Shown here piece after piece: positions 53,147 through 59,500 of a stretch of 64,000 nt of DNA (position 1 is its first letter; each line of letters opens with the position of its first letter). The stretch comes from a virus. Its lineage: Duplodnaviria > Heunggongvirae > Uroviricota > Caudoviricetes. The stretch is taken from IMG/VR virus record IMGVR_UViG_2585427708_000005. The stretch is one strand, 5' to 3'. A program made the translations under genes and the position numbers. The notes under the pieces are model-generated. The model was given only the letters and a program-made list of their open reading frames with translations, was not told the origin of the DNA and made no database searches.

Positions 53147-53821
53147 ATGAGTTATAAGGCAGGTGAGGTTATAATGAGAAAACTATTACTACCGTTATTA
53201 TTTATGGCTGGGACTGTTAATGCAGCATCAAGCGTAAAGGAGATTTGTACCGATTATACGAAATACCTTGGGCACGTTTACGGCTTTGCTGTCAGTGAAG
53301 ACGAATCCATGCGCAAGAAGTTACTGTCAGATATGAAGCGCCTTAAACTTTCTGAAGCGATGGTGCAGCAGGAACTGTATAAAGTCTCAACCAACGCAAA
53401 TGCTAAATACCAATATTCTCGCCTATTAAACCCCGATGCAAATGAGATCAATCGAAGCACTTTCGATTATATGGTAAAGGCATGCGAAACCGCTCCTGAT
53501 TTTGCTATCCCTAGCTGGGGTGTGCTGGTGGCGAGCAATGCCGTTAATAAAGAAGATGTTGGAAGAAATGGCATTGACTCAATCAGAAATGCCCCAGGAA
53601 TGCGCCATCAAAACGTGCAGGGTACGCTTGAAGAGCGGGCCAGGGGGCCGGGTACAAACTCCCCAATGGGAAACCTCTCACCAGAGGAATTGCAAGAGTA
53701 TAACCAACGGATGGAGCAGTATGAGAAAGCGGCACGCGAACAAATGGAACAACAAAAGAACGGCTCACTTAATACCTTCCAGCAAGGTTTAAAAGCGCTT
53801 AATTTACCCTATGAATGGTAA
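53147..53821 (+). CDS. Secreted hypothetical protein (signal peptide) carrying a motif shared with Sit
   Basis: 224 aa; signal peptide MRKLLLPLLFMAGTVNA; GMRHQNVQGTLEERARGPGT matches a Sit internal motif. Confidence 0.55.
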   Translation: MSYKAGEVIMRKLLLPLLFMAGTVNAASSVKEICTDYTKYLGHVYGFAVSEDESMRKKLLSDMKRLKLSEAMVQQELYKVSTNANAKYQYSRLLNPDANEINRSTFDYMVKACETAPDFAIPSWGVLVASNAVNKEDVGRNGIDSIRNAPGMRHQNVQGTLEERARGPGTNSPMGNLSPEELQEYNQRMEQYEKAAREQMEQQKNGSLNTFQQGLKALNLPYEW

Positions 53822-53882
53822 ATATATTATGGATAACCAATTAAAATATTGATAATCGTTAATATCCAAAGGAGATAAATTA

Positions 53883-54359
53883 ATGCGCATCAAACGATTT
53901 TTTCTAATTCTTGCTTTGCTTACTCCATTTTCATCAATGGCAAATGTAAGCAAATGGTCAACCGGCGAGACTCATGGTGTTCGTTCTTATGCTGTTTCCA
54001 GCAAAGATAATTATACGCTTACATTTGAGTGCGATGTTGGATTTAATAATACGGATCCCAATCAAGTAGGAACACGACTACTCACTCTCATGAAAACAGA
54101 ACCTGGCGGTGAGTCATTTGATGCTAAAAAAGAACAAATAACGCTGAAAGTTGGTGATGATGAATATCCTATCAGTTCTATCGGTTCCTCTGTTGGTGAT
54201 AGTTACTGGTATGGTTTTTGGTCAGATACCCCTGATATGGAAGTTAAAACATTCGATGCATACGTAGACGGAAAAAAAATCGCAACATTTACGCTACGTA
54301 AGGCCGCAGAGCTTTTCAACGCGGCACCTGAAGATGGCTGCCTGAAGCGCGCAAAATGA
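53883..54359 (+). CDS. Secreted hypothetical protein (signal peptide)
   Basis: 158 aa; N-terminal signal MRIKRFFLILALLTPFSSMA; strong RBS aaggagat. Confidence 0.55.
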   Translation: MRIKRFFLILALLTPFSSMANVSKWSTGETHGVRSYAVSSKDNYTLTFECDVGFNNTDPNQVGTRLLTLMKTEPGGESFDAKKEQITLKVGDDEYPISSIGSSVGDSYWYGFWSDTPDMEVKTFDAYVDGKKIATFTLRKAAELFNAAPEDGCLKRAK

Positions 54360-54417
54360 CCTGTCACAAATGACTACTCGTAGAATCGGTTAACACACCA
54401 GATTCTACGAGGTTTCA

Positions 54418-55606: not shown

Positions 55607-55620
55607 ATTAAGGAGCAAGG

Positions 55621-56502
55621 ATGCTTTTACCTCTTTTCCCGCTACCATCGCGGCCAACTGAATTGATCCAGTTCCGTCAGCCAAATATTGCTGATGCGAT
55701 GCGTTTCAACTCGATAACACCGGAGGAACAAGAACAACAGACAACGGCGTATTTAAAAGCCTTGCTGGCTGAACCCGCGAAACATGATCCCCTGACATGG
55801 ACGGCGCAGGATCGGATTACCGCGTTATGGTGGATATTTACCGGCTCCCGTGAAACACCGGTCGAGACATTCACCTACACCTGTAAACATTGCGGTAAAG
55901 AGCATTATTACGATTGCGATATGAATGCTCTGGCTGAAGATATCCAGGTCCTGGAAGTGGAACCGTTCATTGACGATATTGAGGTGTCTGTAGAGGGAGT
56001 GCCTTATCAATGGCGTATCGTGCCGCTTGATGGCTGGGCAATGGAAATGCTGGAGATGCGCCGTGCTGCATTGCCACCTGAAGACGACGCGGAATTCAAA
56101 GAAGCGATCGTTGATTTGCGTTTTTGGGAATTCGCTTATCAGTGTGAGCTTTATAACGATGTTAGCGGTACTCGTGAAGATCAGGCTGAGCGTCGTTATG
56201 AAACGATTAAACGGATGGCCATTGATACTGAATTTATGAAGCTGGCGGCACACATCCGACTGGCTCATGAAAAGCTCGAACATGGTTTACCGTGCTACAT
56301 CGATAAAGGTGAAATGCGTCTTCGTCTCCCGCCGCATAAATGCCCAAATCAGGATAAAAAGGAGTCCACAGAGGGTGCATATACCCGTCTGTGGGTGCCC
56401 TTTCGGGCTACCGACTTCATTCCACAGGTGGGGATTGAAAAGCTATCAGACCTTAGTGTCCAACCTGGTTTTGTATGGGGGTATACCGATTCAGGACGCT
56501 GA
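55621..56502 (+). CDS. Hypothetical tail-assembly-region protein with Cys cluster
   Basis: 293 aa; CKHCGKEHYYDCD motif. Confidence 0.45.
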   Translation: MLLPLFPLPSRPTELIQFRQPNIADAMRFNSITPEEQEQQTTAYLKALLAEPAKHDPLTWTAQDRITALWWIFTGSRETPVETFTYTCKHCGKEHYYDCDMNALAEDIQVLEVEPFIDDIEVSVEGVPYQWRIVPLDGWAMEMLEMRRAALPPEDDAEFKEAIVDLRFWEFAYQCELYNDVSGTREDQAERRYETIKRMAIDTEFMKLAAHIRLAHEKLEHGLPCYIDKGEMRLRLPPHKCPNQDKKESTEGAYTRLWVPFRATDFIPQVGIEKLSDLSVQPGFVWGYTDSGR

Positions 56503-56583
56503 AAGGCTTACTGAATCCTATGCGTTTTTCCTGTTGGAGAAACTGGAAGAAAAACTTAAACCGAAACGGTAGGCGATAAGATC

Positions 56584-59500
56584 ATGGAAAGAAAAAACGC
56601 CAACATTGACGATGTTATAAGGACAGTTGAAACCGCCAGCGCAAAAGAGCTGGAAGAGCTTGCAGGTATCCGGGAAGCTGTTGAAGATTTGAAAGGGGGA
56701 CGCGTTGCAACTGTTGATCCTGTCTCTCGCAGTGTGTCGGCATTAAATCGCACAATCGAAAATTCCCGGCCAGACTTTGTGGCCAATGCGCCATCAGTGG
56801 ACCCTATTGTTGAGGCAATGAAACGGCTTAATTTAGGGGACGTTCCTCGTGTAGTTCAGGAGGATGTTGCTCTACAGGAACCGCAGGCCAAATCAACTAC
56901 GCGAAAGGGTAAAAAACGAGGCAGGAAGGCTATAACAGAAGATGTAAAGGCGCAACGGACCGAAGCAGCCGAACACGCCCGCGAAATGTTCGGTCAAAAA
57001 GGCGGTACGCAAAAAAGCCAAAACCAACGCGATGCGCGTGGTCGTTTTATTGGAAAGTCAGGGAGTAAGGCCGCAGCGGAAGATGCCCGTGCTGAACGCG
57101 CTGAAAAGACCAGGCGCAAAGAGGATGATGAGCGTCTAAATGCTGAATCAGGTTTATTAAAAAAACTGTCAAAAGTAGCTGAAGGTATAGGTAACCCTTC
57201 AGAGACTCGTGCCGTCGATGCTTTAGGTTATGCCGTTGCTGGCCCATTGTGGGCAGCGGGAAAAGAGCTTGGCGGGATATCAAAAGAAGTTGGCGGATCG
57301 CTTAATGGTGCCAGAAAGTCTATTGCCGATGTGATTCGTGGCAATGACGATAACAGCCGTAAAAAAGGTTTTTTTAGGCGTAAATCGCAAAGTAGTGCCG
57401 ATGTCGTTCAGGTTAACACCCAAAAACGGACGGTTCAGGAACTTCAGGATCAGACCAGCGAAATTAAAGAGGGCAATGACAAGATTCTCAGCGCCCTTGA
57501 TCAGATAGCCAAAAACACCGGGAAAAAGAAGGGCGGCTTGCTGTCCAAATTATTTAGCCTGTTAGGGAAGGGGGCCGGTGGTATTGCCTCCCTTATTTTT
57601 GGCCGTGGGGCACTAAAGAAAGTTGGCTCGATGGCACTCGGCGCTTTAGGTATTAAGGGGGTAGGGAAACTAGGGATTAAGGCGGTCGCAAAAGGCGCTT
57701 TACGTGCAATTCCGCTAGTCGGCACGGTGGCTGGAGGTATCTATGATGCGGTAACCGGTTGGAATGATATAGAAGCGCAACGCCGAGCGTTTGGGCTTAA
57801 ATCAGGACAAGATCCATCATTCCAGCAAAAAGCCGCTTATACGTTAGCTAATGTTCTTGATATGGGGGGACTGGTATCTGGTATTAGCAGCGCCATTGGT
57901 GAGGTTCTCAAATCACTTGGATTTGAGGATATCGGCAATATGTTGCAATCATTTTCGACGGAAAGTATTGCCCAGGCCATTGATAGCGGGGTTACCAACT
58001 TAGAAACATATATTTCTAATCTTGGCGACACCATTTCTACCAAGTTCGATGATTATACAGCAAAGATTGGTGATGCTATTTCTGCATGGTTCAGTGACAC
58101 CACAAAGAATCTGAACGAAAAATTAGACGCCATCAAAAACTTCTTTACTGTCGATAACCTGAAACAGGTTTTCAGTGATGCAATTGATAGTGCAATTGAT
58201 TTCATTAAGAATCCTGGGAAATACATTAAAGAGGCTGGCAGTAATCTATGGAGTGCCGCAAAAGAGCTTTCAGGTGAGGTTGCAGATGCCGCTGTTCAGA
58301 GCACCCCTGTGGCCTGGGTTGCATCAAAGCTAGTCAACAAAGCGGATGCGAAAGAGGTTACACCTGAATTAAAAACACCAGCTAAAGAAAGTCAGGAGGA
58401 CAATGCTCCTAAGACTGAATATACCCCTAAAAAGGCTAATATTGTCACTCGTGTTGTAAATGCATCCCTAGATACGGCGAAAGATAGCAATAAAACAGTT
58501 AAAGAAACTGCCAATCAGATTATCAATGCAAATGCCGTAGAAACGGGCAATCGCGCGTTGCAGAAAATTGATAATGCTATTGGTCAAAATAGCTCATCAT
58601 CATCGTCGCTTAATACTACTGGCACCAGGAATGACATTCAGAAAGCTGCGGATACCTACAACAATGGCAACTTAGATGTAAAAGTCGGAAGCCTTGGCGC
58701 TGAAGGTAAGGCAAATCTCGATAAGTTGGCTCCGTATTTTGCTGAACTAGAGAATAAATATGGCCTTCCTGAAGGTACTCTTTACGCGATCGCTGCAACT
58801 GAATCTGGTGGTGATCCTAACGCAAAATCTACGCTTACAAGATCACCAAATGGAAAGCTAAGTGGTGGCGCTCTCGGAATGTTCCAGTTTACGAGCGTTG
58901 CTCGTGAGGAAACTGGATTATCCCGGGAAGATTCTTTTAATCCGGAAAAATCGGCAGAAGCTGCGGCTCTTCTCATGAGCAAGTATCTGAAGCAAGCCAA
59001 TGGAGACTTAAACGAGGCCATCACTGCATATAACGCTGGGTTTGGCACTATCAATAAGTGGAAAAAAGGCACAGGTGACTTATCGAAAGAAAACCGTGAG
59101 TACGCGATCAAGGTCAATACTCATCGTGCTCGCTATTTGGGTGGTGAAATCTATACACCTGGAGCAGGAGCACAGGGTGGGGCGCAATATGGAGTGAGGG
59201 GACCACTGCCTGATAACGCCGTTATCGATCAGTCTACTGGCCTGGCGTTTACCCCTGGTGATAGCCCGTTTGAGAAAGGCGGTCTGGTAGACAAAATCGG
59301 CAATGCTGTTGGCGTTAACGATCTGGTCAACAAATTCATGAATGGCCGGGGGATGCGTCGGGAAGTCGTTCAGGGAACCCTCGAAGAACGTGCACGAGGA
59401 AGGGGAACCGCAACGGCAGCTGGCAATGTGTATGTTGATACACCTATGCCAGTTGAAGAGGCACGTCCGGTAGCAAACAACTCAAGTTACTTTGACCAAC

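Follow-up and report, generated by a model that had tools for sequence, protein, structure and literature searches.

A short linear motif is shared by two proteins encoded in a 64-kb stretch of DNA (64,000 nucleotides; IMG/VR record IMGVR_UViG_2585427708_000005; referred to here as the window) from a P1-like phage (Punavirus). One is the tape-measure protein Sit; the other is a small protein of the SimA family that is predicted to be periplasmic. The motif has the core N-x-x-G-M-R-[HQR]-[QE] and is often extended by V-x-G-[TS]-[LM]-x-E-R-A-[RY]-G-x-G-T. We consider it very probable that the shared peptide is a functional linear motif and propose, more tentatively, that the copy of the Sit motif on a periplasmic prophage protein may serve as a decoy for superinfection exclusion. 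The two genes and their relevant parts are as follows.

53174..53821, + strand: intact SimA-family gene (phrog_3933), encoding a 215-aa protein predicted to be periplasmic (224 aa from 53147 in the list of open reading frames [ORFs])
53174..53224, + strand: predicted Sec-type signal peptide MRKLLLPLLFMAGTVNA, with cleavage predicted after VNA (then ASS) and no lipobox
53231..53563, + strand: predicted all-alpha N-terminal domain (approximately residues 20 to 130), with invariant C25, C104, and IPSW
53588..53656, + strand: motif copy in the SimA-family protein, NAPGMRHQNVQGTLEERARGPGT (core, N139-Q146; extension to T161)
53657..53821, + strand: variable C-terminal tail, replaceable or absent in other SimA-family members
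56584..59916, + strand: sit, encoding the 1,110-aa tape-measure protein/structural injection transglycosylase (phrog_2533)
59290..59409, + strand: Sit motif copy 1, DKIGNAVGVNDLVNKFMNGRGMR plus REVVQGTLEERARGRGT, with the upstream half common to Sit copy 2 and the downstream half common to SimA
59494..59562, + strand: Sit motif copy 2 (core only), DQLGAQMGIDGLYDKLINARGMR, located in an insertion of approximately 65 aa

The original prediction, made from the sequence of the window, held that a 20-residue peptide is shared by the two proteins, with identity at 16 positions. Exact translation reproduced this match: GMRHQNVQGTLEERARGPGT in the small protein (53597..53656) and GMRREVVQGTLEERARGRGT in Sit (59350..59409) share 16 of 20 residues, or 17 of 23 when the preceding N-x-x is included (53588..53656 versus 59341..59409). 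The similarity is far beyond chance. Pairwise BLASTP of the SimA-family protein against Sit gave a composition-corrected E value of 5e-9, and the Smith-Waterman score of 104 was reached by none of 500 shuffles (mean, 40.2; standard deviation, 5.4; z = 11.9). When each motif was compared with the six-frame translation of the whole window (tblastn), the sole match was the other copy (E value, ~3e-9). The PHROG profiles matched reciprocally, the secreted protein hitting the Sit family phrog_2533 (4.9e-8) and Sit hitting phrog_3933 (6.8e-4).

The similarity between the two proteins extends over only ~23 to 30 residues. Longer homology was considered, given a BLAST alignment that stretches to 105 residues; however, residues 1 to 138 and 162 to the end of the SimA-family protein scored no higher against Sit than shuffled sequences did (z = 0.5 and 1.2, respectively), which rules out a shared domain. 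At the DNA level, 39 of the 60 bases underlying the 20-residue match are identical, and of the 15 codons for identical residues at which a synonymous change is possible, 13 differ. Synonymous sites are thus nearly saturated while the peptide is kept. The peptide is therefore under selection and does not reflect a recent DNA duplication, in agreement with what had been proposed from the differing nucleotide sequences.

A 48-position profile of the motif was compared with 1.84 billion representative proteins. It returned 11 matches, 10 of which were Sit-like or SimA-like; the 11th was a repeat protein and clearly spurious. Among solved structures, there was none matching the Sit C-terminal region or the motif profile.

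The SimA family comprised 28 homologue clusters, all from enterobacterial P1-like elements of ~90 kb. Matches were present in 267 PLSDB plasmids (84 of them full-length) and at 69 IMG/VR loci, consisting of 24 full-length genes, 13 genes matching residues 1 to 161 (the 163-aa variant type described below), 24 P1-type remnants, and 8 others. A protein 100% identical to that of the window is encoded by an Escherichia coli plasmid from human stool (NZ_CP027590.1:16810-17454; 92,449 bp). Within the family, the core reads N-[AS]-[PR]-G-M-R-[HQ]-Q and is placed after a variable linker. It was retained in all 17 full-length members, among them those with unrelated tails, a 163-aa form, and a distant lineage; residues N139, G142, M143, R144, and Q146 were each kept in 94 to 100% of these proteins, compared with 24 to 65% for the flanks. 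The extension V-x-G-[TS]-L-x-E-R-A-R-G-x-G was found in a subset, and the tails past the motif are unrelated between subgroups. In a distant lineage (P0048 and P0051-P0054), APGMRHQ is kept, as is the AVKGSMAERARGDGT extension in all but P0054.

A frequent variant of 163 aa terminates three residues past the motif (..RARGPGVAP, then the stop codon). In this variant (L031:7974-10258; also L030-L042 and L077), the recombination breakpoint lies exactly at the motif end, and a different YfjT-like gene and a 394-aa ORF follow. The tail type found in the window (53780..53818; also in P0012 and P0054) ends in ..(K/Q)(A/S)LK(A/S)LNLP(Y/F)-x-(W/Y), which is conserved even in the distant lineage; that this aromatic C terminus forms a second linear motif, e.g., for a PDZ-type periplasmic protease, is pure speculation.

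The identity of Sit is clear from its architecture and position. The protein has an SLT domain at residues 718 to 837 (58735..59094; PF01464, E value, 1.1e-25) and a length of ~1,100 aa, and its gene lies between pmgB and pmgA in the tail/baseplate operon, in synteny with P1 sit (~96% DNA identity over the region). Sit has been treated as the tape-measure protein (PMC9024508, PMC12810830) and is not resolved in the cryo-electron microscopy structure of P1 (PMC12810830). A homologue search with the Sit C terminus gave 13 matches, mostly partial proteins. In Sit relatives, the motif is kept in the Salmonella/Klebsiella-type proteins (P0034-P0036) and in proteins of ~38 to 41% identity (P0039 and the distant P0045); G-M-R, V, G, R-A, and G.G are invariant down to 41% identity. 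The search for the motif across P1-like phages that had been suggested at the outset thus found it in orthologues of both proteins across diverged lineages. The Sit motif is also unchanged in phages without an intact SimA (P1 and P7), which argues that its primary role is in Sit.

The ARGMR repeat that had been noticed farther along Sit is present at 59548..59562, where it closes the second motif copy. The two copies form an internal repeat of 23 residues (DKIGNAVGVNDLVNKFMNGRGMR, 59290..59358; DQLGAQMGIDGLYDKLINARGMR, 59494..59562; z = 9.1) with the consensus D-x-[IL]-G-x3-G-[VI]-x2-L-x2-K-[FL]-x-N-x-R-G-M-R. The insertion bearing copy 2 is restricted to the E. coli P1/P7 lineage and is lacking in the Salmonella-type Sit proteins (P0034-P0036). 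A 1,367-aa Sit relative (P0050) carries the motif twice, as AEGMRHQV, and the motif has therefore been duplicated at least twice, in the P1/P7 lineage and in P0050. The insertion region (59410..59562; approximately Sit residues 943 to 993) has two alleles, NARGMRSNNSPQP and NSPGMRKNNAPEP, and which of them is present does not depend on the type of cassette. Sit is also mosaic elsewhere: P0032 and P0036 carry an SLT-domain module clearly different from that of the window (58681..59130), and in these variants the stretch from ..IDxxTGLAFTPG.. through the motif to the C terminus stays one type.

Structure predictions place both copies in segments modeled with low confidence. In the AlphaFold2 model of the SimA-family protein, the motif (predicted local distance difference test [pLDDT], 45 to 51) lies just past a confidently folded domain; in that of Sit, the motif (pLDDT, <50) lies between the SLT domain and the C-terminal end. 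A short helix is predicted over TLEERA. Although these models rest on shallow alignments (17 and 8 sequences), they suggest that both copies are probably in disordered stretches. The pattern resembles that of short linear motifs in two respects: a conserved island stands in variable, probably disordered sequence (again as judged from shallow alignments), and the motif occurs in otherwise unrelated proteins in variable copy number (two in P1-type Sit and two in P0050).

A processing, targeting, or interaction signal had been suggested as the role of the peptide. The low-confidence stretches in both proteins fit an interaction signal. A shared role in virion targeting is unlikely, given that the small protein is predicted to be exported and is encoded in the sim (superimmunity) cassette, upstream of the late promoter LPsit and outside the tail operon. 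In P1, sit is essential, whereas the sim genes are dispensable for lytic growth (PMC10695390), and no Sim protein is named in the main text of the paper on the P1 virion proteome.

The small protein belongs to phrog_3933 over its full length (E value, 5.8e-136), making it a homologue of SimA. Its ORF was listed from 53147; the likelier start is the ATG at 53174 (MRKLLL..., preceded by the Shine-Dalgarno sequence GGTGAGG), which is also the annotated start in Ro157c2YLVW/NC_050153. Read by eye, the N terminus has the n-region, hydrophobic core, and A-x-A-like end of a signal peptide, and the residues NA-[AS]-S at its end are invariant in the family. This putative Sec-type signal peptide and the conserved cysteines point to export into the periplasm. 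Conservation is high over the N-terminal ~115 residues, which AlphaFold2 models as an all-alpha domain (pLDDT, >90) with an orphan fold. The protein had no match in NCBIfam and only a sub-threshold match in Pfam, to PTP-like phytase (25.7 bits versus a cutoff of 27 bits), which we judged spurious. A 96-aa ORF in another frame (53502..53792, + strand) is open across the motif region. Six database proteins of 205 aa (P0002, P0004, P0005, P0007, P0008, and P0017; member counts, 1 to 4) shift into this frame at varying points, a shift seen in the alignment for all but P0005. These proteins most likely reflect assembly indels and less likely real frameshift variants.

The 7.3 kb around both genes is 95 to 97% identical to P1, P7, and their relatives. 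Two further features concern the sim cassette.

53883..54359, + strand: second cassette gene, encoding a 158-aa secreted YfjT-like protein (phrog_3429; E value, 1.3e-80)
54368..54386, + strand: late promoter LPsit, assigned by homology to the P1/P7 annotation, at the downstream edge of the variable cassette

Alignments with P1, P7, and Ro157c2YLVW place the SimA-family gene between the C1 operator Oc4 (immI region) and LPsit, in a slot that is one of eight variable regions of P1-like phage-plasmids (Wang et al., PMC9603915). Homology between the phages breaks off at the cassette and picks up again exactly at LPsit, the alignment with P1 and P7 being identical from ACAAATGACTACTCGTAGAATCGG on. 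P1 carries simA-simB-simC in this slot and P7 two other secreted proteins; all cassette products carry a signal peptide. Most IMG/VR loci, among them L004-L007, have the SimA-family gene in the same slot, L085 and L086 of the distant lineage being exceptions. The YfjT-like gene, whose homologues occupy the same position (PF27224:YfjT), accompanies the SimA-family gene in most cassettes, and diverged forms of it (28% identity) occur in other variants.

P1 SimA, a protein of 52 aa, matches the window ORF almost exactly over its first ~45 residues, signal peptide included, and the upstream DNA is near-identical; the sequences then diverge and the P1 frame stops. The DNA of 53030..53310 is ~99% identical to L002:531-831 up to codon ~46, with the break at the start of simB. 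Accordingly, P1 simA is a truncated 5' remnant of a gene that the window carries intact, and the break inside the gene indicates that the P1 sim operon arose by insertion or replacement within it. The P1 protein lacks the motif and the C-terminal part of the folded domain. SimC, in contrast, is unrelated in sequence to the SimA-family protein and has no Sit-like motif; the sole link between them is an operon in an E. coli-type P1-like element (L046:7974-9451), in which the gene for a SimC homologue (260 aa; 34% identity with P1 SimC; E value, 3e-45) lies immediately after an intact gene of the SimA family (221 aa; diverged motif, GMRTQNTQGALERRALG). This arrangement may represent the ancestral simA-simC order. 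SimB, SimC, the YfjT-like protein, P7 Upf50.0/50.5, and the 394-aa protein of L031 showed no similarity to any protein of the window.

Taking locus and architecture together, we propose the following model. The motif would belong first to Sit, where it would lie in the flexible region that joins the SLT domain to the C-terminal end. SimA would be a Sec-exported accessory protein in which a folded all-alpha domain bears a flexible tail displaying a copy of the Sit motif. In a lysogen, SimA expressed from the prophage would reside in the periplasm; when a related phage injects, its Sit would enter the same compartment, and SimA, through its copy of the motif, would compete for the binding partner that the Sit motif requires, possibly a factor of the host envelope, a component of the tail tip, or a further Sit chain. 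Such competition could stall passage through the cell wall or formation of the channel or conduit, resulting in superinfection exclusion. Taken jointly with direct binding of Sit (discussed below), exclusion has, in our estimate, slightly better than even chances of being what SimA does. The narrower proposition that intact SimA constitutes a new type of superinfection exclusion by mimicry, titrating the partner of the Sit motif, is put forward with considerable reserve. A literature search found no description of the motif or of a function for intact SimA, the P1 genome paper and the older sim papers being outside its reach.

Exclusion at the envelope by way of a tail lysozyme or the tape measure is an established strategy, and none of its examples is known to copy a piece of its target. 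Exclusion proteins of the tape-measure-targeting group include HK97 gp15. T4 Imm likewise binds the tape-measure protein (bioRxiv 10.64898/2026.03.06.709160), and TP-J34 Ltp is an exclusion protein targeting the tape measure (Bebeacua 2013, as cited in PMC3952083). All three block genome entry after adsorption via the tape-measure protein or its membrane partner. They are membrane proteins or lipoproteins that bind the tape-measure protein, whereas SimA has no transmembrane segment or lipobox, and its connection to the tape measure is a copied linear motif, a feature that suggests competition in place of, or in addition to, binding. T4 Spackle (gp61.3) is a secreted periplasmic inhibitor of the tail lysozyme gp5 of a superinfecting relative (PMC7677548, PMC7650644). 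Similarly, the predictions for SimA are of a secreted, all-alpha protein, and its sequence ties it to a tail-borne SLT protein of its phage. However, Spackle binds a folded lysozyme domain and copies no segment of its target, and it is an early lytic gene product, while the SimA-family gene is part of a prophage cassette; neither fold nor sequence comparison placed the SimA-family protein with Spackle. By sequence and fold or by architecture, therefore, the SimA-family protein is outside the SimC, Spackle, Imm, and Ltp families, and the new element would be mimicry of a tape-measure motif within prophage-encoded, envelope-level exclusion. A looser parallel is provided by colicins, in which short conserved peptides (the TolB and TonB boxes) in disordered translocation domains engage periplasmic machinery. 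The GMR motif does not resemble these boxes, and the likeness is one of analogy only.

Several observations weigh against the decoy model. We infer exclusion by SimA-family proteins from sequence and locus; export, disorder, and expression in the lysogen are predictions as well, the last from PsimA, which is a predicted sigma-70 promoter in the P1 annotation and is conserved in the window. The Sim phenotype of P1 was reportedly mapped to simC and not to simA. The PADLOC defense models gave no match to the SimA-family protein. In the AlphaFold models, the motif was not confidently docked on either the SLT domain or the SimA domain. In the distant lineage, the SimA-like gene adjoins neither sit nor the immunity region. 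Finally, the slight likeness of cognate SimA and Sit motifs, which would otherwise favor the model, could reflect micro gene conversion. The signal comes from five non-independent lineages, and the SimA and Sit cores are near-identical in DNA in L004 (19 of 20 nucleotides) and in L084/L085 (20 of 22 nucleotides), so occasional micro-conversion is possible.

The arrangement in the distant lineage, which is represented by metagenomic P1-like elements of ~100 kb, shows that association with sit is not obligatory. There, the SimA-like gene (L085:9001-9531 and L086:9001-9651) heads a rightward block, opposite a divergent block, and is followed by small ORFs, rdgC, and a large DNA methylase. The distant SimA and Sit sequences (L084/L085) come from the same phage, with 100% identity over 4 kb.

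Two more specific hypotheses were set aside. In the first, the motif would be an auto-inhibitory linker of Sit that SimA copies as an SLT inhibitor; the AlphaFold model of Sit residues 700 to 1110 was poor (mean pLDDT, 51) and did not confidently place the motif against the SLT domain, so that the idea gained no support. In the second, cognate motifs would strictly co-vary. Cognate pairs were slightly more alike than permuted ones (diagonal sum, 76; permutation mean, 69.6), with 2 of 120 permutations reaching 76, which is only a weak signal.

We ranked every alternative below the decoy model. Foremost is an unlikely one without antagonism, in which both proteins would use one periplasmic host factor for separate functions, the factor being, e.g., a chaperone, a peptidoglycan enzyme, or an envelope-spanning system, and SimA being, e.g., a lysogenic-conversion or envelope-modifying protein. 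Contact with the periplasm is expected for both proteins, the motif lies in flexible regions and is conserved across host genera, and the YfjT-like and DUF5384 cassette neighbors also occur in chromosomal prophages without a known role in exclusion. Yet no host family or other phage family with the motif turned up in the profile search, which would be odd for a general client signal, and the locus and the linkage to SimC point to superinfection functions. Moreover, an abundant periplasmic protein with the same binding site would compete with injected Sit in any case.

Of nearly the same low standing is the idea that SimA engages the incoming Sit itself, the outcome still being superinfection exclusion. 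Either the all-alpha domain would bind the Sit motif, with the motif of SimA as a tethered pseudo-ligand, or the motif would be homotypic, and SimA would co-assemble with ejected Sit and poison the trans-periplasmic conduit. What every family member conserves is the folded domain and the core motif, with variable linkers between them, and both Imm and Spackle of T4 bind their tail protein directly. The likeness of cognate motifs is also what a homotypic or direct interaction would predict: QGTLEERARG occurs in both proteins of the E. coli lineage and GSMA[ED]RA in both of L084/L085. In the Salmonella/Klebsiella lineages, in contrast, the cognate motifs are mismatched at several positions (EGSLMERARG versus QGTLAERAYG). 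The Sit motif is also highly conserved and lacks escape variation, and AlphaFold gave no docking of the motif onto the SimA domain (pLDDT, <50).

It is improbable that the motif marks a proteolytic processing site, at which a cut would free the SLT domain from the Sit C terminus and a C-terminal peptide from SimA. The segment is an exposed, flexible one between domains in both proteins, and the SimA tails past it are variable or dispensable; tape-measure proteins of other phages, e.g., lambda gpH, are processed near the C terminus. However, cleavage would release nothing from the 163-aa SimA variant, which has only three residues past the motif, and conservation over ~23 residues together with the predicted TLEERA helix exceeds the typical needs of a cleavage site. 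The P1 virion papers (PMC9024508, PMC12810830) give no sign of Sit processing.

Least probable is a functionless relic in SimA, left when the cassette gene captured a fragment of sit or the reverse by illegitimate recombination or gene conversion: the two loci share a replicon at a distance of ~6 kb, the cassette is a hot spot for recombination, and the core DNA is near-identical in the lineages named above, but in the window 16 of 20 residues are kept despite nearly saturated synonymous sites, and a neutral relic would have decayed while flanks and tails were repeatedly replaced, whereas the core persists in every family member.

For the contractile-tailed phage P1, whose tape-measure protein and DNA must both cross the periplasm, the motif is a discrete, mutable element of Sit that likely mediates a key contact. 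It also points to a role, open to experiment, for a widespread accessory gene carried by P1-like phage-plasmids, of which the textbook P1 "simA" is only a remnant; the identity of intact simA and its position in the superimmunity locus are the context that gives the motif its meaning. Should the decoy model fail, the motif would still be a conserved element of Sit. If the model holds, mimicry of a tape-measure motif would join the known ways in which prophages exclude their relatives, and the motif would become a bait for its partner and hence for the missing step of P1 genome delivery.

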